A stretch of 64,000 bases of DNA, from assembly GCA_018714105.1 (NCBI GenBank), contig DVNW01000021.1, positions 63,900 to 127,899 on the forward strand, in the 5' to 3' direction. The notes below the pieces were generated by a model. It saw nothing but the letters and a program-made list of their open reading frames with translations, ran no database searches and was not told where the DNA came from. Shown here piece by piece: positions 3,808-33,708 of this stretch. Each line of letters begins with the position of its first letter. The stretch's first letter is position 1. Source of the stretch: Candidatus Faecicola pullistercoris (GTDB lineage: Bacteria; Bacillota; Clostridia; Christensenellales; CAG-917). The translations under genes were made by a program, and so were the position numbers.

Positions 3808-3883
3808 GGGGGTGTAGCTCAACTGGTAGAGCGCTTGAATGGCATTCAAGAGGTAAGGGGTTCGACCCCCCTCATCTCCACCA
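3808..3883 (+). tRNA. tRNA-Ala (anticodon GGC), CCA encoded
   Basis: Manual cloverleaf: acceptor gggggtg/catctcc with G3:U70, D arm gctc-aactggta-gagc, anticodon arm cttga-atGGCat-tcaag, T arm agggg-ttcgacc-cccct, discriminator A plus CCA. Confidence 0.9.
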
Positions 3884-3952
3884 CCAAAACCGAACGGGAA
3901 AGCCGTTCGGTTTTTTTATGTTGGCGGGGGACGGGCTGCGCCCCGAAAGGCC
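3866..3952 (+). repeat. direct repeat copy 1 (tRNA-Ala 3' end + terminator + about 33 nt)
   Basis: 3866-3919 is identical to 4030-4083 (54 nt). Similarity continues with a few mismatches and one 1-nt indel to 3952/4117. Confidence 0.9.
3886..3917 (+). terminator. intrinsic terminator of tRNA-Ala
   Basis: aaaa-ccgaacgg-gaaag-ccgttcgg-ttttttt. Confidence 0.8.
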
Positions 3953-4029
3953 TTGCGCCTTTCCGAACCCCCGGGCTGACGCGATTGGCCCGAGGCAGCA
4001 ATCGCTGTTCCGTCGTAAAACTCCTTACG

Positions 4030-4117
4030 CCCCCCTCATCTCCACCACCAAAACCGAACGGGAAAGCCGTTCGGTTTTTTTATTTCGGCAGGGGGACGGG
4101 CTACGCCCCGAAAGACC
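4030..4117 (+). repeat. direct repeat copy 2 (orphan tRNA-Ala 3' fragment + second terminator copy)
   Basis: Same as copy 1, offset by 164 nt. No T-stem 5' strand or tRNA body precedes it, so it is a tRNA 3' fragment and not a second tRNA. Confidence 0.9.
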
Positions 4118-4321
4118 CAGGCAAACAAGGGTAGCATAGATTAGGCAATTGACCCGTGTACAAATATTGTTAAACTGTCCCGAAAACGGTGCATTGAATG
4201 TTCTAAAATATACTTATTAAGGGAAGCGTTGCTCCGCATGAGTAATTTAATAAATTTGGAAAAGCTGCAAAATGCATGACAATATATTATAGGCATGGTA
4301 GAATAAATAAGGAGTAAGCAT

Positions 4322-5317
4322 ATGTCGTTAGAAGCAAAGAAAACACTTATATTCCGATTATATCAGGTGCTGTACGAGTATTCTGACGCAGATCGCCCTT
4401 TAACACAAAGTAAAATAATAGAACTATTGGAAAAAAATTACGGCATCGAGGCCGAAAGAAAGGCGATAGGAAGAAATGTTTCGTACCTTACGGAAATGGG
4501 GATTGATATTGTCGGCACCCCTAAGGGGTGTTATCTTGCAGAACGGCATTTTGAGCATTCCGAGCTGCGCGTTTTAATAGACAGCATATTGTGCAGTCGT
4601 CATATAAATCCGAGTCATTCGGGAGCACTTATAGAAAAACTCATAAAATTCGGCGGACGCAATTTCAAAGCCCACGTCAAGCACGTTTTTTCCGTAAACG
4701 ATTGGAGCAAGTCCGAAAATCAGGAATTTTTTTATAATATCGACCTTATTGACGAAGCTATAGAAAAAGAAGTGCAGATAACGTTCGATTACAATAAGTA
4801 CGGTATCGATAAAAAACTTCATAAATCCAAGTCGCACAAAGTCAGTCCCTATCAGATGATACTGCGTAATCAGCATTATTTTCTTATGGCTTATGAGGAG
4901 TATTGGGGGAATATGGCGTTTTACAGGGTGGATAAAATCAGCAACATAAGCGTTAAGAAAACACCGCGTACGCCTTTACGCGAAATAAAAGGTTATGAGC
5001 GCGGTATCAATTATAAAGAGCTTGCGCTGTCCCGACCGTATATGTATTCGGATAAACCCGAAACAATAACGCTGACGTGCCCCGAATGGTTTTTCGACGA
5101 AGTGGTCGACTGGTTCGGAACTGATGTAGCAGTTAAAAAGGCGGACGGAAATATGATTCAGGTGACTTTGACGGCAAGTCCCAGAGCAATGTCATATTGG
5201 GCAATGCAGTACTGCAATTATGCGGAAGTTGTGTCGCCGCCGCATCTGCGTGACGGCATAAAAGACAAACTCGCCTCCGCAGCGGAAAAATACAGGCGGG
5301 AAAAACAGGATAATTAA
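4322..5317 (+). CDS. WYL domain transcriptional regulator (N-terminal wHTH, WYL, C-terminal WCX-like domain)
   Basis: RBS aaggag. The N-terminal HTH segment is LTQSKIIELLEKNYGIEAERKAIGRNVSYLTEMG. The WYL-type core is VSPYQMILRNQHYFLMAYEEYWGNMAFYRVDKISNI. The C-terminal segment is YAEVVSPPHLRDGIKDKL. Confidence 0.8.
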   Translation: MSLEAKKTLIFRLYQVLYEYSDADRPLTQSKIIELLEKNYGIEAERKAIGRNVSYLTEMGIDIVGTPKGCYLAERHFEHSELRVLIDSILCSRHINPSHSGALIEKLIKFGGRNFKAHVKHVFSVNDWSKSENQEFFYNIDLIDEAIEKEVQITFDYNKYGIDKKLHKSKSHKVSPYQMILRNQHYFLMAYEEYWGNMAFYRVDKISNISVKKTPRTPLREIKGYERGINYKELALSRPYMYSDKPETITLTCPEWFFDEVVDWFGTDVAVKKADGNMIQVTLTASPRAMSYWAMQYCNYAEVVSPPHLRDGIKDKLASAAEKYRREKQDN

Positions 5318-5558
5318 AGCCGAAAACTGCAAATATTCGACACAAACCGAAAGCCACAGTTTAAGTATTACGAATAATTGCTTCCGTTTTAAAAACGCTG
5401 TCGTAAGGACGGCGTCCTGCATATAAGGGCGGTTTAATGTTTAAAACTGAACCATATTGTTCTGAGTTTGGAAGGTTCAGAACCAGGATTAGCTCAAATT
5501 TTTGCATAAATTGCGTAAGTGAGGCGATTTTTGATTGATTTCGATATCTGTGCGCGCG

Positions 5559-5592
5559 ACAATGTCCTTTTTTAGGGTCATTGTTTTTTTTA
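5559..5592 (+). terminator. terminator-like hairpin plus T-run just upstream of the mini-DnaE gene
   Basis: acaatg...cattgt imperfect stem followed by ttttttttatt; it lies 30 nt before the ATG at 5622. Confidence 0.3.
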
Positions 5593-5621
5593 TTATTATG
5601 GTAACGGAGGTTTATACTTTT

Positions 5622-6641
5622 ATGAATAATACCGAAAATAATGCGACAAATGAGAAGATGCTTGCGGATGCCGACGCAATAGAAAAGGTGATTGCCGAGC
5701 TTCCCGTTTTGACAAGGCAAGGGACAATTGGCATTGTGAATATTCAAAGGGCATTGAGATGCGGATACGCGACGGCTGCAAAGATATACGATTTGATAAA
5801 AGATAAAAGCCGAATAAAGATAGAAAAGAGTTTTTTTGAACTTGACGCAAAAAGGCAAATGCTTTATCTTGAACAAATCCTGAACGACGCCCTGCCCGAC
5901 AGCGGATATACTCCGGACGAGGTGTATGAGAGGCTTTATAAAGAGATGGCGGTCATAGAGAGCCTCGGTATGGCGGCGGACTTTTTGTTTGCGCGGTCCG
6001 TTGCCGAAATTTTGCGCGAACTGAACCAAGCTCCGTGCTTTGTAGGGATAGGGTGTTGCTCTCTTGTGGCGTTTATGATCGGCATTACGGAGCCTGAACT
6101 CGATCCTATCGAACACGGACTCATCTTCGAACGCGGTTTCGGAGACGGCAAAAAGCCCGAAATGCCGTTTTCCTTCTTTGTTTCTCCCGAAACCGTGCCT
6201 GAATTTACGGAACGTATGAATAAGATTTACGGAGATACGCTTTCATTCAGACGCGACGGCGGATTAGTTTTGTCCGTAGGGGATACAAGCGTTACCGTTA
6301 TAGACACGATTGAACCTCTCCGACAGTCGTATGCCGGCATCGAGGAGTCAATCAATGACTCCGGCATAGCGGTATTTCAGGAAGACTATATGCGTATCAT
6401 GCATTACGCGGCAGGCTACGACTATACCGAGGCCGACAACATACGCAAAACAATAGGGAAGCGCAAAACGGAACAAATCGAAAAATACCGAAGGGAGTTT
6501 GTACGCAAGGCGGCGCATGGTCTTTCGCTTGCGGAAAGTCAGCGTTTGTTTGCCGAAATTGAATTCAAATTGAAACACGCCTGTTGCAAGGCGTATGTTC
6601 TGTCGGCAAAAACCGTTCTCGACGCCCTCTGTTTTGATTAA
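5622..6641 (+). CDS. FtsK-gamma-like winged helix fused to a truncated, catalytically inactive DNA polymerase III alpha (DnaE)-like fragment
   Basis: RBS ggagg. IGIVNIQRALRCGYATAAKIYDLIKDK resembles the FtsK gamma domain. ERLYKEMAVIESLG..DFLF..VGIGCCSLVAFMIGITEPELDPIEHGLIFERGF and VFQEDYMRIMHYAAGYDYTEADNIRKTIGKRKTEQIEKYRREF match conserved DnaE core motifs. The PDxDxDF catalytic aspartate position reads PEMPFSFF. Confidence 0.65.
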   Translation: MNNTENNATNEKMLADADAIEKVIAELPVLTRQGTIGIVNIQRALRCGYATAAKIYDLIKDKSRIKIEKSFFELDAKRQMLYLEQILNDALPDSGYTPDEVYERLYKEMAVIESLGMAADFLFARSVAEILRELNQAPCFVGIGCCSLVAFMIGITEPELDPIEHGLIFERGFGDGKKPEMPFSFFVSPETVPEFTERMNKIYGDTLSFRRDGGLVLSVGDTSVTVIDTIEPLRQSYAGIEESINDSGIAVFQEDYMRIMHYAAGYDYTEADNIRKTIGKRKTEQIEKYRREFVRKAAHGLSLAESQRLFAEIEFKLKHACCKAYVLSAKTVLDALCFD

Positions 6642-6655
6642 ATTTTCTTTAATTC

Positions 6656-6686
6656 AAAACCCCGCGCCGAAAAGCGCGGGGTTTTT
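6656..6686. terminator. bidirectional intrinsic terminator between convergent island genes
   Basis: aaaa-ccccgcgc-cgaaaa-gcgcgggg-ttttt. Confidence 0.8.
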
Positions 6687-6707
6687 AGTTCAGGCTGGTT
6701 ATAAACG

Positions 6708-7853
6708 TCAGTGGGTATTATTTAATCCGAGTTGTCTGAGTATATTTTTTGCCACATTGTCAATCATTTTTTCCTTATTGTCAATCATTTTTTCCTTTTC
6801 GGTATCTTCTTCAAAATACCATTTTACAACGGGGTTGTCTGCTCCCGATAACTTTGTGAGATTGATTTTGCAATTTTCATTAGCGTTTTCCTTGTCGGAT
6901 TGTTGGTTCGGATCAAGATTTAGTTCGTCTTTAAACCATTCGGGCTTTATGTACCACCATTTGTCCCCTTTTTGGCAATACAAGTTTGTGTAGTATGCTA
7001 CACGGCCAACTTCTTCATTATTATTTCCATGGTTTATTTTATAGATTTTGGGTTTGATTTTAGACATATCATAGCCTAGACTGCTAAGCTTGGACGTCAA
7101 AGCCTCAAAAAACGCGGTTCTTATTTGTTCCTTTACTGTATCCATACCGTCTGCCAATGCGCAGGCAGCCTTAAAGGTGTCCGCTTTGTTTATCATTTCA
7201 AGTATTTTTTCTGCATTCATTATATTTTTTGTCTCCTTCGTCAGAATTTCGCAATATTGACTTATCAGTCCGTTTTTGTTTGATTTTTCCAAATCTCCCA
7301 GCCATTTAGTCAGTTCTGCAAAGGAAAGATTGTAATATTCGGTGTTGTCGAGCGAGCATTTTTTTTCGCATTCGGAACAAGTGGTTTTATTTGCAGACCG
7401 TCCTGTCGGAGTAAGGAAAATCAGAGTAAATTGTTTGTTTGATTTTTGCAGATACCGATGATATCTTAAAAGTTGTGTCGGTTGTTCGCCCGCGCGCCAT
7501 TTAACTTCGATTGCGACGATATATTTTTCCGCTTCGAAATATAAGTCAATGCGTCCGTTCTTGGATTTCGGGCAGTCCGACATGGCAGGACAAAAGAATT
7601 CGCATTGGCTGCTACACAATTTACCTGCATTTTTGTTCTCGTTCAGTTTAAAAAGCTTTATAAAACTATCCCAATTATTATCAATCAGATATTTCAAAAA
7701 TCTGCTGTGAAATAATTCTTTATTTTCTATGTTCAGAATTTGGAAAATGTTATCGTTCGAAACGGAGCCGTATTCAAGTTCGGTCGTTTTCGGACAGCTT
7801 AGCAGCTCTTTGATTGCCTGTTGAAAATCATCAGTTTGATTATTATTCCCCAT
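6708..7853 (-). CDS. PD-(D/E)xK nuclease family protein (PDDEXK_4-like)
   Basis: Start at MGNNNQ with RBS ggagagg. N-terminal NIFQILNIENKELFHSRFLKYLID, then GRIDLYFEAEKYIVAIEVKWRAGEQPTQLLRYHRYL (D...E-x-K core). The C-terminal half has no family I recognise. Confidence 0.7.
   Translation of the reverse strand: MGNNNQTDDFQQAIKELLSCPKTTELEYGSVSNDNIFQILNIENKELFHSRFLKYLIDNNWDSFIKLFKLNENKNAGKLCSSQCEFFCPAMSDCPKSKNGRIDLYFEAEKYIVAIEVKWRAGEQPTQLLRYHRYLQKSNKQFTLIFLTPTGRSANKTTCSECEKKCSLDNTEYYNLSFAELTKWLGDLEKSNKNGLISQYCEILTKETKNIMNAEKILEMINKADTFKAACALADGMDTVKEQIRTAFFEALTSKLSSLGYDMSKIKPKIYKINHGNNNEEVGRVAYYTNLYCQKGDKWWYIKPEWFKDELNLDPNQQSDKENANENCKINLTKLSGADNPVVKWYFEEDTEKEKMIDNKEKMIDNVAKNILRQLGLNNTH
6756..6797 (-). 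repeat. perfect 21-bp tandem duplication inside the nuclease gene 3' end
   Basis: attgtcaatcattttttcctt occurs twice back to back and encodes KEKMIDN-KEKMIDN. Confidence 0.95.
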
Positions 7854-7905
7854 AAAGTCCTCTCCTTTGTGTATATAAAAATTATAACAATCAGTTTTCG
7901 CAGTG

Positions 7906-8391
7906 TCAAGAATAGACGTGCCATTTGGTGATTTTGTAGGAGTATTCGTGAGACGACCAGGCGCGATAGCCCTTGTTGCTTTGCGCGTGCAAAAACGCCT
8001 CGTCTCCGGGGGCAAGCGTTACGAAACTTGCTTGGTCGCTTCCGAGCAGGTTGCCGTCCGCGTAGAAGTTGGCTTCAAACGAAACCTTTTTGGTGGTGTT
8101 TGAGGTGTTTTTGACCTTGACGACGACGATGGGGTACAGATTGTTGCCTATTATCGTGTAATAAGGATTTGTTACAAGATGTTCTTCCAGAATCTCGATT
8201 CCGCTCATACCGTTTCCGAACGATAAGGCGATTATTATGATTACCGCCACGACTGCAATCGCCACTATGATAAATTTCTTTCTGCCGCCGGAAATATTAT
8301 CTTTGGTCGGTTCGGAACAGGCGCCGAATTGCAAAGACTGCCAGTCTTTAATCATATCGTTAAGGTTATTGTTTATATTGTTTTCTTGCAT
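7906..8391 (-). CDS. single-pass membrane protein with small beta-rich ectodomain (FxLYD/DUF4352-like)
   Basis: Start at MQENNINN with RBS aggagg. TM helix FIIVAIAVVAVIIIIALSF. The C-terminal segment VVVKVKNTSNTTKKVSFEANFYADGNLLG resembles the FxLYD-type domain. It lies 52 nt upstream of the nuclease gene on the same strand. Confidence 0.55.
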   Translation of the reverse strand: MQENNINNNLNDMIKDWQSLQFGACSEPTKDNISGGRKKFIIVAIAVVAVIIIIALSFGNGMSGIEILEEHLVTNPYYTIIGNNLYPIVVVKVKNTSNTTKKVSFEANFYADGNLLGSDQASFVTLAPGDEAFLHAQSNKGYRAWSSHEYSYKITKWHVYS

Positions 8392-8500
8392 GTTGCACCT
8401 CCTGAGCCAATTATAACTTACTTCTCGGTGCTTTTTTGTCGCATTGGGGTAGCTAATATACAATTGTGTGACGATGCAGTAAGAACAAGGAGGAATTTTT

Positions 8501-9076
8501 ATGCATTTGACTGAACTTATAGAAAAATCATATATCGTTGCGGTAGACATCGGCAAAATCGTTCGTCATGGCAAAAGCAAAATATTGTATATAAGTGCCG
8601 TCAAGGTGTGCGGATGGAGAGCATGTAAAGATATTAAGTACGATAAACTGAATAATGTTGGAAGTTTTTATCGACGCATTTCCTATAGGCGCATATTCTG
8701 CGCCGGCGCAGACAGCAAAAAAACTCGTATAAATGTCGAGCACGGGGAATGTGATTTGCATACGGCATTATTAGGCTTCAAAAATTTTTTGGGCGATGCA
8801 ATTTTGGTTGGGTATGATTTCAAAAGGTTTGATTCCTTGTTGATCAGTTCAGGAAAAAAATATAAAATAGATTTTGACAATCGCAGGTTGGACACACTCG
8901 ACATTGCTAAAACGATGTTTAAAGACAAAGTAAAACTATATGATTTGTATTTTCTGCACCGTATGTGTTCGTGCAAATATATACAGCCCGATAATCTGTG
9001 TTATCCGGCAATTGCAACTGCGGAGTTGTTGGCAGGATTAGCTGTACGCGATGAGTATGTACATGATAATTACTGA
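8501..9076 (+). CDS. DnaQ/PolC-type (DEDD) 3'-5' exonuclease fold protein with degenerate active site
   Basis: RBS aggagg. YIVAVDIG..ISAVKV (Exo I, DxE reads DIG), GDAILVGYDFKRFDSLLI (Exo II, HN reads YD, FD kept), RLDTLDIAK, CYPAIATAELLAGL (Exo III, H reads Y and the Asp is missing). Confidence 0.6.
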   Translation: MHLTELIEKSYIVAVDIGKIVRHGKSKILYISAVKVCGWRACKDIKYDKLNNVGSFYRRISYRRIFCAGADSKKTRINVEHGECDLHTALLGFKNFLGDAILVGYDFKRFDSLLISSGKKYKIDFDNRRLDTLDIAKTMFKDKVKLYDLYFLHRMCSCKYIQPDNLCYPAIATAELLAGLAVRDEYVHDNY

Positions 9077-9248
9077 TTTTTATTTTTCGGGTTGCAGTTA
9101 TTCACGCTCGCATTGATTTATACCTTCGTTGCTCGGAGAAAACATTGAAAGAGGAAAAGACAGAGACTTGTATTTTCAGCGCTTTGTATTATAATTACAA
9201 TGAATTGCGCAATTACATTTAAATTGTCTTGATTTAAGGGGGATTCAG

Positions 9249-9470
9249 CGGTAAAGGAAAATATCTGACACGCAAAGCATTTGAAGGGACTCTTTACCTG
9301 CGGAAATATTTTTCAGGGGAAAAGCCGCCTTTTCGGACGCCGTAGGGCATTGTATAGCGGATTGTCTGAAACAATATGCGGAAGACCTGTATTCGGACGT
9401 CGAATTCGAGCAGAAATGAGCAAAGTACTCGCATGTGAGTCCCTTTACGAAAGAGTCGCTCTTGTACCGC
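9249..9470 (+). pseudogene. dead internal fragment of an asparagine synthetase (asnB-like) gene
   Basis: It aligns base for base with 18740-18962 of the intact asnB (222 vs 223 nt). There is one 1-nt deletion and a TGA in the original frame. Similarity stops abruptly at both ends. Confidence 0.85.
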
Positions 9471-9863
9471 TATTATTAAATTAACACGAAAGTGCGGAAC
9501 AGACGGAAAAAAGGAAACGCATATACCTGACTTACATATGCCTCAGCCGTAGCTACGTATATATTTGCTTATACAAATTATAATAGCGCGAGGTTTGCAC
9601 CTGGGATGTGAAAGCAAAGACAATATTACTTTGTTAAACAACAAACAGATTATAAACATCTCTGCTTGCAATTGTTTTTTATGTCGGCGGGGGAATATTA
9701 ATATTAAAACCTGAAAAATGTCGGAGATTCGGTAAAACATAAAAAGAGAATATAAAAATGATAATGCTATAATGAAATACGGGTAGCTTTTTCCGTAATA
9801 GCGATTTTCAAAATTGACGTTTGCTTGAAAGCTATGTTATTTCGGATTTTAACATATGGAGTG

Positions 9864-9892
9864 AAAAAACCGAGTGGACGTCTCGGTTTTTT
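9864..9892 (-). terminator. intrinsic terminator at the end of the minus-strand nitrogen operon
   Basis: aaaaaaccgag-tggacgt-ctcggtttttt immediately after the ANTAR gene stop. Confidence 0.75.
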
Positions 9893-9902
9893 GGTTATGC
9901 GG

Positions 9903-10487
9903 TTATTTATAGGTGTTTATGATGTTTCGGGCGATTTCGGATTTGGTGAGGCAGCGGTCCATGGCTTGCTTTTCGATATAGCGGTGGGCGTCCTCCTCGG
10001 ACATTTTAAGCACGTCTATCAGAAGCCATTTTGCGCGGTTTACGGTGCGGATTTCTTCCATTTTATCCTTTACGGACGATACGGTTTTTTCATAGCGTCT
10101 GAGGCGTTCGCGCGTGGCGCACACAAAGTCGAGCGCCTGCGCAACCATTTGAGGCGAAGTGGGTTTTGGCAGAGTCAGCACGCCGAATTCGCTTACTTTG
10201 GAATAGGTCTGCGGATAGACGTCCGCTTTTACGAATACGAGTGCTACCGAGTTTTTTTCGTTGCAGACGTCGATGGCGAGTTTTATGCCGAAGTCGTCGG
10301 GAAGGGGCGAGTTTACGATTACTATATCGTAGTCTCTTTCCAGCATGGCGCGCTTAGCCTGCGAGACCGAAAGTACGGTTTTGACGGGGAAAAAGCGGTT
10401 TTCGCGGAGTACCGACGACAGAGAAGAGGTAAACTTCTCCGTTGACGATACCGTTAAAACGCTGTAAATCCGCTCTTTGAGCGCCAT
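9903..10487 (-). CDS. ANTAR-domain RNA-binding antiterminator with pseudo-receiver domain
   Basis: C-terminal ANTAR pattern EEIRTVNRAKWLLIDVLKMSEEDAHRYIEKQAMDRCLTKSEIARNII. In the N-terminal CheY-like fold the DD pocket reads SS and the phospho-acceptor Asp reads Asn (DIVIVNSPLPDD). Confidence 0.8.
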   Translation of the reverse strand: MALKERIYSVLTVSSTEKFTSSLSSVLRENRFFPVKTVLSVSQAKRAMLERDYDIVIVNSPLPDDFGIKLAIDVCNEKNSVALVFVKADVYPQTYSKVSEFGVLTLPKPTSPQMVAQALDFVCATRERLRRYEKTVSSVKDKMEEIRTVNRAKWLLIDVLKMSEEDAHRYIEKQAMDRCLTKSEIARNIINTYK

Positions 10488-10500
10488 AGTTCCTCCGTTA

Positions 10501-11712
10501 TTAAAGTTTGCAGTAAATCTGAATTAAAGATTCGGGCAGACAACTTTTTACAAAGTCGCTGTCGGCCGCAATGCGTTTAGCCTCGGCAAGGGAAGCGGGC
10601 AGGGTTTTGAACCGTGCGGTTACGCTTTTGTCCGCCGCAAAAAGGTTTATGTCGGCGGGTTCGGGCAGTTCGGCGCGGCGTTCTATACCGTCGAGTCCCG
10701 CGTATATAAGCAATGCAAACGCAAGGTAGGGGTTGCATGCGGGGTCGGGAGAACGCAGTTCGGCGCGGCTGTACTCGCCCGTCGCCGCGGGAATGCGTAT
10801 GAGTTGCGAGCGGTTTTCGCCCGACCAGGATATATATTTAGGCGCCTTGTTGTTGCCGAGCCGTGAGTATGACGCTTCGGTAGGATTGAGAAACAGAGTA
10901 ATATCGGCAATCCTGTCGAGTATGCCCGCGATGACGTAAGGCATAAGCTGTTTGTTTTTGCCTTCTCCGGCGGAGATATTGATATGAAGGCCGTTGCCGG
11001 GCATGCTTTGCAAGGGCTTGGCCGAGAAATCGGCGTACAGACCGTTGCGCGCGGCAACCGTTCTGACTACCGATTTGAAAGTTACCGAATTGTCCGCCGC
11101 TACAAGAGGAGAGGAATATCTGAAATCGATTTCATTCTGTCCGGGGCCTTCCTCGTGGTGCGAGCTTTCGGGCATAATATCCATCTGTTCGAGAGTAAGG
11201 CATATTTCGCGTCTTACGTTTTCGCCCTTGTCCTCGGGCGCGATATCCATGTATCCGGCGTTGTCGTAAGGCACGGTTGTGGGCAGACCGTTTTCGTCGA
11301 GTCTGAAAAGGTAAAACTCCATTTCCGAGCCGAAGTTAAAAGAGTAACCCGCTTTTGCGGCGTCGCTTACGGCTTTGGCCAGTATGTTGCGGGTATCGTT
11401 TTCGAAAGGAGTGCCGTCGGGATAAGATACGTTGCAGTATAACCTTACCACTCTGCCGTGTTCGGGTCGCCACGGAAGCACGGACAGCGTGGAGGAATCG
11501 GGATGCAGAAAGAGGTCGGAATGTACTTCGCCTCCGAAACCTTTTATGGCCGAAGCGTCTATGGCAATGCCGTGCCTGAAAGCCCTTTCGAGTTCGGAGG
11601 GCATTATCGATACGTTTTTCTGAACGCCGAAGGGGTCGCAGAACGCAAGACGTATGAATTTGACGTCCTCTTCTTTTACGAATTGCATTACTTCTTTTGC
11701 CGTGTAATTCAT
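10501..11712 (-). CDS. glnA: glutamine synthetase, short type I-like form (403 aa)
   Basis: GS N-terminal beta-grasp (VKFIRLAFCDPFGVQKN) and catalytic domain (FGSEMEFYLF, HHEEGPGQNEIDF, NGLHINIS, RSPDPACNPYLAFA). Confidence 0.85.
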   Translation of the reverse strand: MNYTAKEVMQFVKEEDVKFIRLAFCDPFGVQKNVSIMPSELERAFRHGIAIDASAIKGFGGEVHSDLFLHPDSSTLSVLPWRPEHGRVVRLYCNVSYPDGTPFENDTRNILAKAVSDAAKAGYSFNFGSEMEFYLFRLDENGLPTTVPYDNAGYMDIAPEDKGENVRREICLTLEQMDIMPESSHHEEGPGQNEIDFRYSSPLVAADNSVTFKSVVRTVAARNGLYADFSAKPLQSMPGNGLHINISAGEGKNKQLMPYVIAGILDRIADITLFLNPTEASYSRLGNNKAPKYISWSGENRSQLIRIPAATGEYSRAELRSPDPACNPYLAFALLIYAGLDGIERRAELPEPADINLFAADKSVTARFKTLPASLAEAKRIAADSDFVKSCLPESLIQIYCKL

Positions 11713-11727
11713 AATATCACCTATATA

Positions 11728-12447
11728 TCAGTTTTCGACGTACATCTGTTTGTACGGGTTAGAGCTGTTTGGAGTAATTACGGTAAAACCGTCTTTCAGC
11801 AGTTCGGCTTCGTTGCAGCCGAAGAGCGCGCAATACTTGGCGACGTAAGGTTTTATCTCTTTAACGTCGGCAGGGGTAGCGGGGGCTGCGGTAACCTGCC
11901 CGGGAAAAACGATACCGGCCGAGTCGCCTCGCAAAAAAACTTTGCCGCCGTGCATTCCCGTACACGGGAAGTTTCCCACAATATTTCTGCCGTCGGTGTG
12001 CCTGCCCAGAACGATTATCAGGCCGCCCGCCTGATATTCGCCCAGAAAACTGCCGCACCTGCCGCCTATTACCATGACGGGCAGTTTGTCGCCGTATGCT
12101 TTCATGTGGATGCCTGCGCGGTAACCCGCGTTGCCCTTTACGAATATCTGTCCTCCGCGCATCGAGTATCCGGCGGCGTCGCCTACGTTTCCGTGTACGA
12201 TTATTTCGCCCGCGTTCATCGTGTCGCCCACGGCGTCCTGCGCGTTTGCGTGTACCGTTATGACGGCGCCGTTCAGATAGGCTCCGAGCGCGTTTCCGGG
12301 TATCCCGTCAATTTCCACCGTCTTATCGCTTAATCCCGCGCCGATAAACCGCTGTCCCAGACAGTGGGTTATCCGTACGGTATCGTCCGCCTTACGGATA
12401 GCTTCGTTTAAAAGACCTTCGGCGTAGTCTGTAACTTTTATTTCCAT
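11728..12447 (-). CDS. GXGXG-motif protein (glutamate synthase alpha-subunit C-terminal domain homologue)
   Basis: Repeated beta-helix pattern GNALGAYLNGAVITVHANAQDAVGDTMNAGEIIVHGNVGDAAGYSMRGGQIFVKGNAGYRAG. Confidence 0.8.
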   Translation of the reverse strand: MEIKVTDYAEGLLNEAIRKADDTVRITHCLGQRFIGAGLSDKTVEIDGIPGNALGAYLNGAVITVHANAQDAVGDTMNAGEIIVHGNVGDAAGYSMRGGQIFVKGNAGYRAGIHMKAYGDKLPVMVIGGRCGSFLGEYQAGGLIIVLGRHTDGRNIVGNFPCTGMHGGKVFLRGDSAGIVFPGQVTAAPATPADVKEIKPYVAKYCALFGCNEAELLKDGFTVITPNSSNPYKQMYVEN

Positions 12448-12500
12448 ATTATATCATACCTCGCGTGTTTTTATATTAATTTTGAAGCTGTTTTTTAAAA

Positions 12501-14006
12501 TTACTCGCCCGCGTGCGCTATGCCGAGTATCGACAGTTCCTTGTCGTTAAGGCCTATACCTCTCAGCATAAGCCTGTTGCCCCTGAGCGCCTCTATGGAA
12601 TTTATTCCCATGCCGCCCATCATTTCCATGATTTCTCTGCGCCATGCGGTGAGAAGATTGACAAGCCTTTCGCTGCCCGTACGTGAGTCGAGTCGTTTTA
12701 CAAGGTCGGGATGCTGGGTGGCAATGCCCCAGTTGCACTTTCCGCTCTGGCAGTTGCGGCACAAATGGCAGCCCATGGCGATAAGCGCGGCGGTAGCTAT
12801 ATAGCAGGCGTCCGCGCCCAGCGCAATGGCTTTGACCACGTCCGCGGCGTTTCTTATACTGCCGCCGGCTATAAGCGATACGTTGTTGCGTATTCCTTCT
12901 TCGCGAAGCCGTTTGTCAACCGCGGCAAGGGCCAGTTCTACGGGAATACCCACGTTGTCTCTGATTCTGGTAGGCGCGGCGCCCGTGCCGCCACGATAAC
13001 CGTCTACGGCGATAATATCCGCTCCGCTGCGGGCTATGCCGCTTGCAATCGCGGCTATGTTATGTACGGCCGCAACCTTTACGATAACGGGCTTTCTGTA
13101 TCCGGTAGCTTCTTTTAACGAATATACCAGCTGACGCAGGTCCTCTATCGAATATATGTCGTGATGCGGGGCGGGGGATATGGCGTCCGAACCCTCGGGT
13201 ATCATGCGTGTGCGCGATACGTCACCCACTATTTTGGAACCCGGCAGGTGCCCGCCTATGCCGGGCTTTGCTCCCTGTCCTATTTTGATTTCGATAGCCG
13301 CGCCCGTTTCGAGATAATCCTTATGCACGCCGAAACGGCCCGAGGCGACCTGAACCACGGTATTTTTGCCGTAGAGGTAAAAGTTCTCGTTCAGGCCGCC
13401 TTCGCCGGTATTGTAAAAGGTACCCAGTCTGGTGGCGGCTATGGCCAGACTTTCGTGCGCGTTATAGCTTATCGAGCCGTAGCTCATGGCCGAAAACATT
13501 ACGGGAAGGGACAGTTCCAGCTGAGGCGGAATTTCGCATTTTAAATTTCCGTTTTCGTCTCTTTGGGCAGAAGAGGGTTTTTTGCCCAGAAAAACCTTGG
13601 TTTCCATAGGCTCGCGCAGCGGATCTATCGAAGGATTGGTTACCTGCGACGCGTTAATCAGTATTTTGTCCCAATACACGGGTTGCGGGCAGGGATTGCC
13701 CATGGACGACAGCAGTACTCCGCCGCTGGCCGCCTGTTTGTAAATTTCCTTCACGGTTGCGTCGTTCCAGTTGGCGTTGTCTTTTAAATTGCAATTGCTT
13801 TTTACAATTTTAATAGCATGTACAGGGCATACGGCGACACACCTCTGACAGTTTACGCATGCAGTGTCGTCCGATATCATGACGTCGCCTTTCTGAGAAT
13901 ACGAATGCACGCCGTTTGAACACTCTTTTTCGCATATTCTGCATTTTGTACAGCGCAAATCGTTTCTTAAAACCTCGTATTCGGGATATATAAAATCAGC
14001 TTGCAT
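12501..14006 (-). CDS. glutamate synthase-related FMN-binding protein with N-terminal 2x[4Fe-4S] ferredoxin motifs
   Basis: CTKCRICEKEC and CVNCQRCVAVCP motifs, then the GltB FMN domain (GQGAKPGIGGHLPG, DGYRGGTGAAP, LIAGGSIRNAADV). Confidence 0.85.
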   Translation of the reverse strand: MQADFIYPEYEVLRNDLRCTKCRICEKECSNGVHSYSQKGDVMISDDTACVNCQRCVAVCPVHAIKIVKSNCNLKDNANWNDATVKEIYKQAASGGVLLSSMGNPCPQPVYWDKILINASQVTNPSIDPLREPMETKVFLGKKPSSAQRDENGNLKCEIPPQLELSLPVMFSAMSYGSISYNAHESLAIAATRLGTFYNTGEGGLNENFYLYGKNTVVQVASGRFGVHKDYLETGAAIEIKIGQGAKPGIGGHLPGSKIVGDVSRTRMIPEGSDAISPAPHHDIYSIEDLRQLVYSLKEATGYRKPVIVKVAAVHNIAAIASGIARSGADIIAVDGYRGGTGAAPTRIRDNVGIPVELALAAVDKRLREEGIRNNVSLIAGGSIRNAADVVKAIALGADACYIATAALIAMGCHLCRNCQSGKCNWGIATQHPDLVKRLDSRTGSERLVNLLTAWRREIMEMMGGMGINSIEALRGNRLMLRGIGLNDKELSILGIAHAGE

Positions 14007-15100
14007 TAATATTTACCTTCCTTTACCTTTACTATCACGGCTTCGCCGCCCTCGGGCGAGTATATTTCGCCGACTTCTTTTTCCATGGCGCGGATAGAGG
14101 CTTCTTCGCTGGAAACATAGACGACGTCGTCCTTTTCCGCCATTACCATGGAGCGCAGTTTGAGTCTGTCGTTAAGAGCCATAAGTCCGCCTTCGAAACC
14201 CAGCACTATGGAAAAAGGCCCCGTTATTAAAAGCCCCGAATATACAGTTCTCAGATAAGTCAGTATGCGTTTTTCCTCTTCCTGCTTGCGGCTTATCGTG
14301 GACCAGAACGGAGCGGCTATCACGGCGGCCGCTTCTTTCAGCGTCAGCTTTTGTCTTCGGGTAAGATAATCTATCGCGTAGGTGATTACCTCGGTATCCG
14401 TTTGAAGAGTGCATTTATAGCCGAACATTTCTATAAAGCGTCTGTTTGCGTCGTATGAGGATATCTCGCCGTTGTGCACTACCGAAAAGTCGAGCAGGCC
14501 GAAGGGGTGGGCGCCGCCCCACCAGCCAGGGGTATTGGTAGGGTATCGGCCGTGCGCCGTCCAGCAGTAGGCTTCGTATTCGTCCAGGCGGTAAAATTCG
14601 CCGACGTCCTCGGGATAGCCCACTGCCTTGAAAATGCCCATGTTTTTACCGCTGGAAACTATACAGGTTCCTTTAAACGTGCTGTTTATATGCATTACGG
14701 AGCGCGCTACGAATTCCCGCTCGTCCAGCTGAGCGGCGGCAAGCCGGGATTTCAGCGGCGCGAGAAAATAGCGGTATATTATAGGTTCGTCGGTGATAAG
14801 AGGCGTTTTTCTTACCGGTATGGGTTCGGCCTGTACTATTTCGTAACTGTCTTTCAGAAAGGCTTCGGTTTCCTTTCTGCAAAGCGTGTTTTCGAAAAAC
14901 ACGTGAAAAGCGTAAAACCGGGCGTATTCGGGATATATTCCGTATCCCGCAAAGCCGCCGCCCAGTCCGTTGGATCGCGCGTGCATGGGAATCATGCTTT
15001 TTATGATGCCCGAACCGTCCTGCCTGTTTCCTTCTCTTGAGATTACCGCCGATATAGCGCAACCCGAAGGTATTCTTACTTGTCCTTCTTTTAAGTTCAT
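14006..15100 (-). CDS. class II (Ntn) glutamine amidotransferase, GltB N-terminal domain homologue
   Basis: Start chosen at MNLKEGQVRIPSGCAIS. VVHNGEISSYDANRRF is typical of the GATase-2 family. Its stop overlaps the ATG of the downstream gene (TAATG). Confidence 0.75.
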   Translation of the reverse strand: MNLKEGQVRIPSGCAISAVISREGNRQDGSGIIKSMIPMHARSNGLGGGFAGYGIYPEYARFYAFHVFFENTLCRKETEAFLKDSYEIVQAEPIPVRKTPLITDEPIIYRYFLAPLKSRLAAAQLDEREFVARSVMHINSTFKGTCIVSSGKNMGIFKAVGYPEDVGEFYRLDEYEAYCWTAHGRYPTNTPGWWGGAHPFGLLDFSVVHNGEISSYDANRRFIEMFGYKCTLQTDTEVITYAIDYLTRRQKLTLKEAAAVIAAPFWSTISRKQEEEKRILTYLRTVYSGLLITGPFSIVLGFEGGLMALNDRLKLRSMVMAEKDDVVYVSSEEASIRAMEKEVGEIYSPEGGEAVIVKVKEGKY

Positions 15101-15125
15101 AACGTATTCCTTTGTAGGTTTTTGG

Positions 15126-15186
15126 TAATAAAAAAGCAAAGGCGCACTTTTCATAGAGTATATACTCCTGAAATGAACGCCTTTGC
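15126..15186 (-). promoter_or_regulatory. 5'-proximal leader hairpin plus U-run (terminator/attenuator-like) of the minus-strand nitrogen operon
   Basis: On the minus strand: gcaaaggcg-ttcat..gagta-ta-tactc..atgaa..-cgcctttgc followed by ttttttatta. It starts about 8 nt after the predicted TSS. Confidence 0.55.
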
Positions 15187-15199
15187 TCATTTGTTAAGG

Positions 15200-15228
15200 A
15201 TTATAGCATAAGAGGCAGGCGCTGTCAA
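15200..15228 (-). promoter_or_regulatory. consensus sigma-A promoter for the GATase/GltB/GlnA/ANTAR operon
   Basis: The minus strand reads TTGACA, a 17-nt spacer, then TATAAT (perfect consensus hexamers). Confidence 0.7.
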
Positions 15229-15282
15229 CAATCGCACAGGCTGCGCGGCGTAAAAATTTTTTAAAAAAATATCCGAAAACCG

Positions 15283-15312
15283 TTGACAAATCCAAAAAAG
15301 GTCTTGTATAAT
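15283..15312 (+). promoter_or_regulatory. near-consensus sigma-A promoter for glnN-asnB-pyrG
   Basis: TTGACA, an 18-nt spacer, then TATAAT. Confidence 0.65.
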
Positions 15313-15328
15313 TCCTAGCATAAAAAGG

Positions 15329-15380
15329 CAAAGGCGTCTTTGAGATACCACTCTCGAAGGCGCCTTTGTCTATATTTTTA
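15329..15380 (+). promoter_or_regulatory. 5'-proximal leader hairpin (17-bp stem, hexaloop) plus U-rich tract upstream of glnN
   Basis: caaaggcgtctttgaga-taccac-tctcgaaggcgcctttg followed by tctatattttta. It shares the caaaggcg/cgcctttg stem base with the divergent leader. Confidence 0.55.
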
Positions 15381-15404
15381 TATTTTAACAAGGAGAATTA
15401 CATT

Positions 15405-17501
15405 ATGCAAACGGTAGCAGATTATTTCGGAAGTATGGTATTTGACGACCGCGTTATGCGCGCAACGCTTTCGGCGGAAGTTTACAGAAGTCTCAAAAAG
15501 ACTATTGACCAGGGAGCGCAACTCGATTTATCCGTTGCCAACGCCGTCGCGTCCGCAATGAAGGACTGGGCGGTTTCGAAGGGCGCTACTCACTATACGC
15601 ATTGGTTTCAGCCGCTGACGGGTATCACGGCCGAAAAGCACGACAGCTTTATAACGCCCGCTCCCGACGGCAGAGTAATAATGGAATTTTCGGGCAAGGA
15701 ACTTATCAAAGGCGAACCCGACGCCTCGTCCTTTCCCTCGGGCGGACTGAGAGCCACCTTCGAGGCTCGCGGATATACCGCATGGGACCCGACTTCGTAC
15801 GCGTTTATCAAGGGCAAAACGCTTTGTATACCTACTGCGTTCTGTTCGTACGGCGGAGACGCTCTCGACAAGAAAACCCCGCTTCTGCGTTCGATGGAGG
15901 CGCTCAACAGGCAGGCTATGCGTATCCTTAAACTGTTCGGGAACAAAAACGTAAAATGCGTTAGAACGTCGGTAGGGCCCGAACAGGAATATTTCCTTGT
16001 GCCCAAGGAGCTTTACGACAAGCGCAAGGACCTGATTTACACGGGGCGCACTCTGTTCGGCGCCAAACCGCCGAAGGGGCAGGAAATGGACGACCATTAT
16101 TTCGGCGTCATCAAGCCGCGCGTGGCCGCGTTCATGGACGACCTCAACGAGGAACTCTGGAAACTCGGCGTACTGGCCAAAACCGAACATAACGAAGTTT
16201 CGCCGGCTCAACACGAACTCGCGCCCGTATTTTCAACCACAAACATAGCGACGGACCATAACCAGCTTACTATGGAAATTATGCAGAAGGTGGCGGCAAG
16301 ACACGGCCTGGTTTGCCTGCTGCACGAAAAGCCTTTTGCCGGCGTGAACGGAAGCGGCAAACATAACAACTGGTCCATAGCCACGGACAAGGGAGTAAAC
16401 CTGCTTACCCCCGGCGAAACGCCTCACGAAAACGCGCAGTTCCTGCTTTTCCTTTGCGCCGTATTAAAGGCCGTGGACGATTATCAGGACCTTCTGCGCA
16501 TAGCAGTGGCGACTGCCGGCAACGACCACAGGCTTGGCGCGAACGAAGCTCCTCCCGCAGTGGTTTCGGTATTTTTGGGAGACGAGCTGACCGCAATACT
16601 CGACGCCATAGAAAACGACCTTCCTTACAGCGGGACAAAAAAGAAACTTCTTAAACTCGGCGTAGACGTTCTGCCACTGTTCCCGAAAGACACAACCGAC
16701 AGAAACCGTACTTCACCGTTCGCTTTTACCGGTAATAAGTTTGAGTTCCGTATGTTGGGCTCTTCAAACAGCATTGCCTGCGCAAACATTATGCTTAACA
16801 GCGCGGTGGCCGAATCGCTTAAAATTTATGCCGACAGACTTGAAGACGCCAAGGACTTCAACACGGCCCTTCACGCCATGATCAAAAAGACGATTAAGGA
16901 CCATAAGCGCATAATATTCAACGGCAACGGCTATGACGACGCCTGGATAGAAGAGGCAACTCTGAAGCGCGGATTGCTGAATTATCCCACTACGCCGGAC
17001 TGTATGCCTCACCTGATGGATAAAAAGAACGTGGATATGCTTACTTCTCACGGCGTTTATTCGGAAAAGGAACTTGCTTCCAGATGCGACATAATGCTTG
17101 AAAACTACTGCAAGACTGTTGTTATAGAAGCGTCTACCATGATAGACATGGCGCAGAAACAGATTATTCCCGCAGTGGAAAAATACGCGGCGTCGGTAGC
17201 GCGGGCGGCGGTTTCCAAACAGACTTTGTTACCCGACATCGACTGCGGCTACGAAAAAGAACTGGTAAAGACGCTTTCATGCCTGACGGCTCAGGCCTCG
17301 GCAAAAACAGCCGCTCTCAAAGCGGCGTTGGAAAAGGTCAGGGTGGCTTCTTCCGTTACCGAAGAGGCGTTTGCCATACGGGACGGGCTTCTGCCTGCGA
17401 TGAACGAGCTCAGGGCTGTCGCGGACGAGGCGGAAACGCGTACTGCCGAAGAATTCTGGCCCTTCCCGACGTACGGCGAACTGCTTTTCGGCGTCAGATA
17501 A
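15405..17501 (+). CDS. glnN: glutamine synthetase type III (698 aa), copy 1
   Basis: Start at MQTVADYF with RBS aaggaga. GS-III length and motifs ([56 protein letters not shown]). Confidence 0.9.
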
Positions 17502-17522
17502 AATATCGAGGGAGATAGGTAT

Positions 17523-20725
<3,203 letters not shown>

Positions 20726-31611: not shown

Positions 31612-33708
31612 TTATTTTACGCTGAACAGCAACTCGCCGTAAGTCGGGAACGGCCAGAATTTTGCGGCGGTGTTGAGTTCCATTTCGTCGGCTACCGCCC
31701 GAAGTTCTTTCATTGCGGGGATCACTCTGTCGCGATAGCTTTCGGCCGCTTTTGCTCCTTCGCCGAATCCGTGAGTTTCAAAGAGCGCGGTTTCCAGAAG
31801 TTTGAGTTTTTTGCTTCCGCTGGAATACAGTCCGCTCAGTTTTGCCACGAGGGCGGTCTCTTCCTCGGAGGATATGAAATTGTCTACCGCGCGCTTTGCG
31901 GCGATTTCTTCGCAAAGCTCTTTGATGTATTCGCTTACTGCGGGCAGAATTTCCTTTTTCATCATATCCGACATGGTAAGAGCCTCGATATTCATTACCT
32001 TGCAGTAGTTTTCGGTAAGAATTTCCTGCCTGGACCTGAGTTCGGCTTCGGTAAAGACGCCGTGCCGAGCAAACAGAGCCATGTTCTTTTCAAAAGTGTA
32101 GCACGGGAGTACGTCGGCCGTGCTCTTGTAATTGAGTAAGCCGCGTTTACCCGCTTCTTCCAGCCACTCTGCCGAGTAGTTGTTGCCGTTGAAGATGATG
32201 CGTTTGTGAGCCTTTATGGTTTTTCTTATTATTCTGGTGATGGCGTCGTTAAAGTTTTCGTCGCTGTTTTCAAGCTCGTCCGCAAATATTTTCAGCGTAT
32301 CGGCAACGGCCGTGTTTATAACGGTGTTGGAATCGGCAATCGAAAAGGCCGAACCCAGCATCCTGAACTCGAATTTGTTGCCCGTAAACGCAAAAGGAGA
32401 GGTGCGGTTTCTGTCCGTGCTGTCCTTAGGCAGCTGGGGCATGACGTGCACGCCTATTTCCACGTTGCATTTCGCTCTGCGGCTGTAAGTGCGGTCTTCT
32501 TCAATTGCCGAAAGAATACCGTCCAGCTCCTCGCCGAGATATATCGAAACGATTGCGGGCGGCGCTTCGTTGGCTCCCAGTCTGTGGTCGTTGCCCGCGC
32601 TTGCCGCCGTCAGCCTCAACAAATCCTGATAGTCGTCAACGGCCTTGATTACCGCCGACAGGAACAGCAGGAACTGAGCGTTGTCGTACGGGCTGTTTCC
32701 GGGTTCGAGCAGGTTAATGCCCGTATCGGTGGAAAGCGACCAATTATTATGTTTACCGCTTCCGTTTACGCCTTCAAACGGCTTTTCGTGCAAAAGACAC
32801 GTGAGTCCGTGACGCACGGCAACCTTTTTCATGACCTCCATGGTAAGCTGATTGTGGTCGTTGGCTATGCTTGTAGGCGTATATATGGGCGCCAGCTCGT
32901 GCTGCGAGGGAGCAACTTCGTTATGCTTGGTTTTGGCCGAAATGCCGAGTTTCCAAAGTTCCTCGTCAAGGTCCTTCATGTATGCGGCTACGCGCGGTTT
33001 GATCGCGCCGAAGTAGTGGTCTTCCAGTTCCTGTCCTTTCGGGGGACGGGCGCCGAACAGCGTCCTGCCCGTGTACATTATATCCTTGCGCATGCCGCAG
33101 ATTTTGCCGTCGATAAGGAAATATTCCTGCTCGGGCCCCGCGGTGGGAATAACTTTTTTAACGTCGTTCTTTCCGAAAAGGCGCAGTATCCTCAATGCCT
33201 GTTTATTGATGGCTTCGATGGACTTTAAAAGAGGGGTTTTTTTGTCGAGGGCCTCGCCCGTGTAAGAGCAGAACGCAGTCGGAATACACAGTATTCCGTC
33301 TTTTATGAACGCGTAGGACGTCGGATCCCATGCTGTATATCCGCGCGCCTCGAAAGTCGCCCTGAGCCCGCCCGACGGAAAGGACGAAGCGTCGGGTTCG
33401 CCTTTAATAAGCTCCTTGCCGGAAAACTCCATTATAACCCTTCCGTCGCTTGTGGGGCTGATGAACGAATCGTGCTTTTCGGCGGTTACGCCCGTCATGG
33501 GCTGGAACCAATGCGTATAATGAGTTACGCCTTTTTCGATGGCCCAATCCTTCATGGCGCCGGCAACGACGTCAGCGACTTCGCGCGATAAGCTTCTGTC
33601 CTCGGCTATGCATTTTTTTAGCTCGTTATAAGTTGCGGCAGGCAGCCGTTTTTTCATAACCGCGTCGTTAAACGCCATCGAGCCGAATATTTCCGACATA
33701 GGAACCAT
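31612..33708 (-). CDS. glnN: glutamine synthetase type III (698 aa), copy 2
   Basis: Same length and motifs as 15405-17501. Long identical peptide stretches ([40 protein letters not shown]) but many synonymous differences at the DNA level. Confidence 0.9.

Follow-up and report, generated by a model that had tools for sequence, protein, structure and literature searches.

A predicted catalytically dead miniature of the DnaE-type polymerase III alpha subunit in a low-GC island of a gut Clostridia genome

What use might a bacterium have for the center of its replicative DNA polymerase once the residues that carry out polymerization are gone? The question is raised by a small open reading frame (ORF) in Candidatus Faecicola pullistercoris, a member of the Clostridia (Bacillota; Christensenellales; CAG-917), of which a stretch of 64,000 nucleotides (assembly GCA_018714105.1, contig DVNW01000021.1, positions 63,900 to 127,899 of the forward strand) was analyzed and is referred to here as the window. 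An original prediction, made from the sequence alone, had described the ORF as a winged helix of the kind found in the gamma domain of FtsK, fused to two pieces of the core of the DNA polymerase III (Pol III) alpha subunit in which the catalytic aspartates are replaced. We refer to the 339-residue product as mini-DnaE, and its sequence is best read as that of a DnaE-type Pol III alpha which has been domesticated, reduced to a miniature and rendered catalytically dead. The sole database name for the family to which it belongs is “hypothetical protein.” Two large surveys of C-family polymerases recognize only PolC and DnaE1-3, and fragments lacking an intact active site were dropped from them (PMC3919608, PMC12926913). 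Our literature searches, directed at PDC-S26, PDDEXK_4, DNA_pol3_finger and inactive DnaE/WYL, returned no description of the family.

Two fragments of a polymerase core

Profile comparisons uniformly recover the two non-contiguous Pol III alpha pieces that had been proposed. Pfam places DNA_pol3_alpha (PF07733; E 1.2e-10) on residues 96-182, aligned with positions 18-102 of the 260 in the profile, and DNA_pol3_finger (PF17657; E 3e-12) on residues 247-298, aligned with positions 112-163 of 166, both above the Pfam cutoffs. The NCBIfam models of DnaE likewise match in two stretches, at 40-76 bits (best 75.8) against cutoffs of 434-1806, and a profile of the mini-DnaE family searched against the Protein Data Bank (PDB) matches the Pol III alpha of Thermus aquaticus (Taq; 2hpi/3e0d), again in two stretches, at E 1.3e-18; its alignment with 2hpi supplies the Taq correspondences listed in Table 1. 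When an AlphaFold2 model based on 23 sequences of the family (pLDDT 82, pTM 0.75) was compared with the PDB by Foldseek, it matched 14 Pol III alpha structures (E 1.6e-6 to 1.5e-4) followed by PolC, with TM-scores of about 0.53-0.59 over the query among the top matches; no other fold was returned below E 0.1. Similarity of the palm and finger fragments to Pol III alpha is accordingly significant in both kinds of search.

Set against full-length DnaE-type enzymes (Taq 2hpi/3e0d and Escherichia coli 2hnh), the homologous parts are the N-terminal half of the palm and a helical segment of the fingers. Among the DnaE signatures retained are RLxxEL, G..S-LVAY-GIT..DP...GL(L/I)FER and (Y/F)QE, together with EAD.(L/I)R(R/K)..GK(K/R)K and the lysine of NKSH. 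About 190 of roughly 1,160 residues are kept in this way, whereas the PHP domain, the thumb, the second half of the palm, most of the fingers, the (HhH)2/clamp-binding domain, the OB domain and the tau-binding tail are missing. Indeed, no stretch of the 339-residue protein outside the two fragments matches Pol III alpha, and the original prediction was right that the PHP domain, the middle region, the OB fold and the tail are absent. Mini-DnaE differs from DnaE, moreover, in that its gene is island-borne rather than universal.

The reading frame of mini-DnaE is intact, and, as had been reported, it is preceded by a ribosome-binding site (RBS). A hairpin rich in G and C and bordered by T and A runs follows it, lies between the convergent mini-DnaE and nuclease genes and is likely a bidirectional terminator. 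The database representative of the protein (P0001, 368 residues) begins at an upstream TTG at position 5535; we take the ATG at 5622 as the start, because the homologues all begin at its methionine in the alignment and because the RBS supports it.

Table 1. Features of the mini-DnaE locus, in window coordinates (aa, amino acids; nt, nucleotides; HTH, helix-turn-helix; wHTH, winged HTH).
Feature	Position	Strand	Remarks
tRNA-Ala(GGC)	3808..3883	+	left edge of low-GC island
Duplicated tRNA-Ala 3' end with terminator and about 40 nt	3866..3952 = 4030..4117	+	copy 164 nt downstream
wHTH-WYL-WCX regulator (CapW/BrxR type)	4322..5317	+	Pfam WYL 2.9e-8, WCX 3e-5; PADLOC WYL 7e-25; directly upstream of mini-DnaE
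RBS GGAGG	5606..5610	+	11 nt 5' of ATG; read off the sequence
Mini-DnaE coding sequence	5622..6641	+	339 aa; wHTH, palm fragment and finger fragment of Pol III alpha; predicted catalytically dead
FtsK-gamma-like HTH, aa 15-61	5664..5804	+	optional in wider family
Palm (nucleotidyltransferase) fragment, aa 95-208	5904..6245	+	= Taq Pol III alpha 377-489, E. coli 320-426
G-I-G-C-C-S loop, aa 142-147	6045..6062	+	occupies polymerase G-S-A-A-G-S position
P-F-S-F-F, aa 182-186	6165..6179	+	occupies catalytic D-x-D-x-D strand position
Finger fragment, aa 247-326	6360..6599	+	= Taq 738-822; QE, R275/K276, K280 and K323 retained
Hairpin	6651..6690		inverted repeat I9; 17-nt arms, 88% complementary, 6-nt loop
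PD-(D/E)XK nuclease (PDDEXK_4)	6708..7853	-	Pfam 1.1e-18; PADLOC candidate PDC-S26 7e-32; convergent with mini-DnaE
Predicted single-pass membrane protein, 161 aa	7906..8391	-	conserved C-terminal domain; no family match
ORF of 191 aa, weakly DEDDh-exonuclease-like	8501..9076	+	PADLOC DEDDh E 2e-4; first motif degenerate (VAVDIGK)

The catalytic columns were read from 92 full-length C-family polymerases, taken from the representative search and aligned to the family hidden Markov model (HMM). Where aspartate is near-universal in the polymerases (85 of 87, 85 of 86 and 81 of 85 sequences), mini-DnaE has P182, S184 and F186, and none of 41 family sequences carries an acidic residue at any of the three columns; the catalytic aspartates have thus indeed been replaced, and the loss is common to all 41. 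Counted along the profile alignment, the columns correspond to Taq D463, D465 and D467. Of these, D463 and D465 are catalytic in the Taq enzyme, and the third catalytic aspartate is Taq D618, within a segment (Taq 490-737) that has no counterpart in mini-DnaE. The GS loop is altered as well. The serine of its motif, present in 75 of the 92 polymerases, is replaced by I143, while the neighboring G142 and the more distant S147 align with the conserved glycine and serine of the polymerases; the two loops are of equal length, and the shortening introduced in the original alignment is not needed. Conserved residues inherited from the polymerases further include E170, E254, R275, K276, K280 and K323. 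Because the DxDxD acids and the GS serine are replaced, and because the segment bearing the third aspartate is gone along with the thumb and the PHP, clamp-binding and OB domains, mini-DnaE, as judged from its sequence, cannot be a polymerase of known mechanism.

Ahead of the polymerase fragments stands a small N-terminal domain, for which FtsK_gamma (PF09397) is the sole recurring Pfam family, matched by 9 of 15 family N-termini with a best E of 2.6e-7. In the window protein the match covers residues 30-61 (E 0.002, 18.3 bits) and improves when the N-terminal segment is searched in isolation (E 1.2e-4, 22.2 bits), and the relative P0039 reaches 26.4 bits (E 5.6e-6) as a whole protein. Whole-protein scores in the family thus run from 18 to 26 bits, and all of these bit scores fall below the gathering cutoff of 30.6 bits. 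A profile of the N-termini has an FtsK gamma structure (2j5p) as its top, weak match in the PDB (E 0.31), and hhalign against an E. coli gamma sequence gives a probability of 39%, with the signature of helices 2 and 3 aligned. That signature, ..iS...iQR.l.iGY.rAa.i.d.le across helix 2, turn and helix 3, is what mini-DnaE has in common with the gamma domain of FtsK/SpoIIIE, a winged helix that reads FtsK-orienting polar sequences (KOPS). The AlphaFold2 model has helices at residues 5-33, 38-45 and 49-60 and no wing strands, with pLDDT of 46-76 in that region; unlike in FtsK, the wing hairpin seems to be missing from the window protein, although a wing-like segment is kept in P0039, and no translocase motor accompanies the domain. 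Members of 259-295 residues lack the N-terminal HTH altogether. What stands of the proposed FtsK gamma domain is therefore a recurrent resemblance, which we regard as real for all that it is sub-threshold, and not an assignment at the Pfam threshold; from its sequence, the domain is best named an FtsK-gamma-like HTH.

A family of short forms

A word-indexed search returned 36 clusters of relatives at 90% identity, nearly all of 334-353 residues, and an exhaustive HMM search of 1.84 billion representatives gave about 19 clusters at 50% identity. The short forms found by the latter match in a single full-length stretch at E <= 1e-27 and measure 259-450 residues; full-length DnaE proteins match in two stretches at E >= 1e-22 and are separated from them by a gap. 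Relatives of the same short architecture, which the original prediction had proposed to look for, are thus plentiful, and the homologues are not limited to full-length DnaE. The architecture is kept down to 24-36% identity, with E108, S147, I155, L167, F169, E254, H261 and K323 invariant in the broad alignment. The pairwise ratio of nonsynonymous to synonymous substitution rates (dN/dS) among orthologues is 0.18-0.32, and the family is under purifying selection.

The sequences come from gut metagenomes, all from gut Clostridia. Among 185,579 GTDB species representatives only three carry the family, namely Ca. Limadaptatus stercoripullorum, Ca. Stercoripulliclostridium pullicola and an uncultured Clostridia bacterium, and a profile search of genomes and metagenomes retrieved mostly full-length dnaE together with three family loci in genomes and five in metagenomes. 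An origin in phages or plasmids was considered and rejected: searched by tblastn, 50,697 records of phages and 72,556 of plasmids yielded full-length DnaE polymerases alone, as did Foldseek against the viral structures of BFVD, and short forms were absent from all three. At the C-terminus, 10 of 18 members in the broad set and 12 of 23 in the close set carry [FLYM]PF-COOH, with an acidic or polar residue just before it, whereas the window protein ends in CFD and its closest allele in RFD, neither with the terminal PF. The motif resembles the C-terminal tip of SSB (...IPF/LPF), which docks repair proteins, a likeness that we treat as a lead only.

The island and its changing gene content

The mini-DnaE gene lies in an acquired island of roughly 5.8 kb that begins directly after a tRNA-Ala gene and has a G+C fraction of 0.37-0.45 across about 4000-9900, against about 0.50-0.55 outside. 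The 3' end of the tRNA is duplicated (Table 1), and the last 20 nt of the repeat (TTTTTTATGT[T/C]GGCGGGGGA) recur at 9675-9694; the repeats at 3866-4117 and 9675-9694 may mark the ends of the island. No integrase was found among the island genes, and an Rfam scan of the island gave tRNA only. In a second genome of the same species (L001), this tRNA-repeat region contains some 100 additional bases, which fall in the stretch 4001-4100.

The regulator and the nuclease that flank mini-DnaE are assigned from family models (Table 1), and PDB sequence searches with either were uninformative. The D...ExK motif of the nuclease looks intact by eye (GRIDL...IEVK). Near its C-terminal end the nuclease reads KEKMIDN-KEKMIDN, the product of a tandem repeat of 21 nt (6746-6787); aligned with L001, the window shows 21 gap columns in the 100-nt bin that holds it, and the number of copies probably differs between the strains. 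The 161-residue membrane protein adjoins mini-DnaE in all close relatives, even in those that lack the nuclease. More doubtful is the 191-residue ORF. Its PADLOC DEDDh model also matches the fused N-terminus of the relative P0031 at 7e-12, but its PDB matches to DEDDh/DnaQ proteins (E 0.3-0.8) and its hhalign comparison with the fused DEDDh N-termini are not significant, and its AlphaFold2 model has a pLDDT of 35. Its homologues are confined to close relatives at 66% identity or more, and it co-occurs with mini-DnaE in L001, L099, L100 and L103. Its DEDDh assignment is weak on sequence grounds, and it may tentatively be counted as part of the module.

Fourteen distinct contexts of mini-DnaE were compared (Table 2). 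A WYL regulator lies upstream in 6 of the 11 contexts with enough upstream DNA, with orthologous regulators in L001, L004, L008, L093, L099, L100 and L102. A PD-(D/E)XK nuclease is adjacent in 7 of the 14, recurring in L004, L011, L013, L094, L099 and L100 in differing position and orientation, and the PADLOC models of PDC-S26 match the neighbors in L004 (1.7e-40) and L094 (1.6e-9). A protein resembling uracil-DNA glycosylase (UDG) is adjacent in five contexts; used as a profile, these proteins match the family-4 UDG structures 1vk2/1l9g at E 0.007. In four relatives (P0030, P0031, P0037 and P0041) a DEDDh domain is fused to the N-terminus (RNase_T, E 1.6e-11), spanning only the first two exonuclease motifs, and an IetA-like ATPase, a Schlafen-like helicase with a Dam methylase, and Fic make up the other defense-type neighbors. 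What stays constant is mini-DnaE, frequently in company with the WYL regulator, and the cargo that varies around them is always a DNA-processing enzyme. The slot between regulator and mini-DnaE illustrates this exchange. It is empty in the window (5318-5621), where no remnant of a UDG-like gene was found, and elsewhere holds a UDG-like gene (L099, 5126-5911), a small PD-(D/E)XK-like gene (L008, 3927-4589) or a PDDEXK_4 gene; the slot behaves as a site of cargo exchange.

Table 2. Gene order around mini-DnaE (mini) in the contexts compared (>, forward; <, reverse; ::, fused; TM, transmembrane protein; LRR, leucine-rich repeat).
Context	Gene order	Remarks
Window, L001-L003	WYL > mini > < PDDEXK_4 < TM > DEDDh-like	
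L099, L100	WYL > UDG-like > mini > < PDDEXK_4 < TM > DEDDh-like	> Fic in L099
L011	UDG-like > mini > < PDDEXK_4 < TM	
L008	WYL > 220-aa D...ExK-motif protein > mini < TM	motif by eye; then metallophosphatase, IetA-like ATPase
L013	PDDEXK_4-type fragment > mini < TM	
L103	mini < TM > DEDDh-like	
L102	WYL fragment > 261-aa relative of UDG-like protein > mini	
L004	WYL > PDDEXK_4 > DEDDh::HTH::mini	38% identity
L093	WYL > UDG-like > HTH::mini	
L094	501-aa PDDEXK_4-domain protein > mini > UDG	UDG E 8.5e-9
L101	Dam methylase > Schlafen-type helicase > mini	
L095	LRR protein > mini > 218-aa Rx4H-motif protein	motif by eye
L097	PNPase, then DEDDh::HTH::mini	
L005, L010, L015	mini	stand-alone

The window was also compared with L001, a single strain pair. 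The ion channel, the WYL regulator, the ANTAR regulator, GlnA and GltS are 99-100% identical at the protein level, with synonymous divergence (dS) of 0.01-0.09, at which dN/dS is not informative. Mini-DnaE, by contrast, is 78% identical (dS 0.58, dN/dS 0.22), and the PD-(D/E)XK nuclease 82% (dS 0.085, dN/dS 1.14). In a 100-nt sliding comparison the divergence is limited to 5800-6600, the polymerase-like core, and 6700-7900, the nuclease, the identity of the latter forming a mosaic of 75-100% per 100 nt, whereas the HTH part of mini-DnaE (5622-5800) is 97-98% identical in nucleotides. The pattern suggests localized allelic replacement or diversification of the sort typical of genes in genetic conflict, and it links the mini-DnaE core to the nuclease. 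Their co-divergence further suggests either an interaction between the two proteins or a fast-evolving antagonist, such as a phage, that is common to both.

Possible roles for a polymerase that cannot polymerize

Polymerase homologues that have lost catalysis and serve as accessory proteins are known from the Y family (ImuB) and from eukaryotic B-family enzymes. In the literature searched, no such protein is described from the C family, to which the bacterial replicative enzymes belong. The regulator at the head of the locus offers another point of reference. Repressors of the wHTH-WYL-WCX type, such as CapW, sense single-stranded DNA (ssDNA) and de-repress immune operons (PMC11662680), and WYL regulators of the BrxR type co-localize with diverse defense systems and head many islands (PMC9122601). 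The mini-DnaE locus has such a regulator in the same place and likewise turns over modular cargo around it. The adjacent nuclease matches the models of the PADLOC candidate PDC-S26, but that candidate is a single gene and unvalidated, and no described WYL/PDC-S26 system has a polymerase-derived subunit.

From the gene neighborhood and the strain-level variation we infer that mini-DnaE may act as a scaffold or sensor, and the reading that we prefer, if with not quite an even chance of being correct, is that it serves a conflict module, based on nucleases and controlled by WYL, as a binding subunit without catalysis of its own. The upstream repressor would switch the module on, and proteins that cut or process DNA would do the work. 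These would be interchangeable, a PD-(D/E)XK nuclease in the window and UDG-like or DEDDh modules in other genomes, with mini-DnaE as their non-enzymatic sensor, targeting or regulatory partner; as a sensor it might respond to DNA, to a phage protein or to its own nuclease. The gutted cleft, which keeps R275, K276, K280 and K323 and gains D255 and H261, would bind either a ligand, DNA or a nucleotide, or another protein, and the HTH would tether mini-DnaE to DNA.

Several observations weigh against this proposal. The clade of P0026-P0028 (L005, L010 and L015) stands alone amid housekeeping genes, with neither WYL regulator nor nuclease beside it, and many of the close relatives share ancestry, so that part of the synteny is not independent. 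The co-divergence of core and nuclease is drawn from one strain pair, and the divergence of mini-DnaE looks like the import of an old allele rather than demonstrable positive selection, because its own dN/dS is below 1. The protein is also without the thumb and the (HhH)2 domain, the source of most of the grip of Pol III alpha on DNA. PDC-S26 is no more than a candidate for defense and normally stands alone. Finally, mini-DnaE itself has no PADLOC or PHROG model, its PHROG matches being to polymerase families only.

A more specific version of the proposal makes mini-DnaE the signature subunit of an undescribed anti-phage system. Phage factors directed against the replisome would be lured or detected by mini-DnaE, as their decoy or sensor; alternatively, mini-DnaE would cap primer termini in phage replication or repair intermediates. 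The DEDDh-fused lineages would then represent a “pseudo Pol III core,” in which a truncated epsilon-like DEDDh domain is joined to a gutted active-site module, and mini-DnaE would license the PD-(D/E)XK nuclease or UDG-like glycosylase effectors under WYL/ssDNA control. We consider this version unlikely.

Just as unlikely, in our estimate, is a scaffold in the manner of ImuB, that is, a dead polymerase that bridges repair enzymes to DNA or to the replisome within a WYL-controlled damage response. ImuB is an inactive-polymerase hub (PMC10421592, PMC6511836), and the WYL regulators DriD and PafBC control non-SOS damage responses (PMC10853764); the neighbors of mini-DnaE are, moreover, all of repair type (UDG-like, PD-(D/E)XK and DEDDh), and the SSB-like C-terminal PF motif of many members would, as a lead, fit this reading. 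Like mini-DnaE, ImuB keeps a polymerase fold stripped of its catalytic carboxylates as a non-enzymatic accessory beside DNA-processing partners. The likeness does not extend much further, however. ImuB belongs to the Y family and mini-DnaE to the C family, and ImuB is near full length, carries a beta-clamp motif and is encoded in LexA-regulated imuA-imuB-dnaE2 cassettes, whereas mini-DnaE has no QL[SD]LF clamp-binding motif in its sequence and neither imuA nor dnaE2 in any of the 14 contexts. The patchy and narrow distribution (3 of 185,579 GTDB species representatives) and the island-like location also count against it, as does the extreme allelic divergence between otherwise identical strains, which is unusual for a housekeeping repair factor, and the window protein lacks the C-terminal PF motif.

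Less probable still is an antitoxin-like inhibitor, in which the HTH-bearing mini-DnaE would keep the neighboring PD-(D/E)XK nuclease in check by binding it, and might regulate its own gene as well, the two diversifying jointly in the manner of cognate toxin-antidote pairs. Many type II antitoxins join an N-terminal DNA-binding domain to a variable partner-binding domain, and this is the architecture seen here. The core has diverged in step with the nuclease, the HTH being conserved, and the motif of the nuclease looks intact. Yet mini-DnaE persists where the nuclease gene is lacking (L013-type, L103, L101 and L005), in some contexts a UDG-like protein takes the place of the partner enzyme, the genes of the window converge and form no operon, and nucleases of the PDC-S26 type usually stand alone.

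We think it improbable that the fragment has been re-invented as an enzyme, with E254, D255, H261 and K323 together with S147 and E170 forming a new catalytic or metal center of, for example, nucleotide-modifying or hydrolytic function. D255 and H261 are invariant in the family and specific to it, the 92 polymerases having glutamine (81 of 92) and a variable residue at these positions, and the close subfamily has C145/C146 and C322 invariant in addition. However, most of the invariant residues (E108, S147, E170, E254 and K323) are inherited from DnaE, where they are non-catalytic, and Foldseek shows no likeness to other enzymes. A metal cluster of C145/C146/C322 was considered as a family-defining site and rejected, as conservation of these cysteines does not extend beyond the close subfamily. 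The idea of a functionless, decaying dnaE remnant, be it a pseudogene or a strain-specific deletion product, fits a set of fragments from a larger gene that have lost their catalytic residues but is effectively refuted, in keeping with the original judgment against random decay, by the intact frame with RBS and terminator, the architecture of 259-450 residues kept at 24-36% identity across about 19 clusters, the dN/dS of 0.18-0.32, the confident and compact model fold, and the fusion of other domains (DEDDh, HTH) to mini-DnaE.

As a selected short form, mini-DnaE suggests that the active-site module of DnaE can fold and be maintained alone at about a quarter of the normal size, and it may offer a minimal scaffold on which the palm-finger interface can be studied. 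In gut Clostridia it is tightly linked to a WYL regulator and to genes for nucleases, glycosylase-like proteins and exonucleases that diversify rapidly, an association that points to mini-DnaE as a new accessory component of islands for defense or DNA surveillance.

Beyond the island, the window holds two further features of note. The first is a dense nitrogen-assimilation cluster (9903-20725 and 31612-33708) with an ANTAR response regulator, a type I-like glutamine synthetase, glutamate synthase subunits, asparagine synthase and CTP synthase, in which type III glutamine synthetase paralogues occur at 15366-17501 (+) and 31612-33708 (-). The second, at 25901-31552 (+), encodes a protein of 1,883 residues that combines DUF4011, a superfamily 1 helicase (AAA_11/AAA_12) and a REase_MTES_1575 nuclease domain, a helicase-nuclease of the kind found in defense islands.

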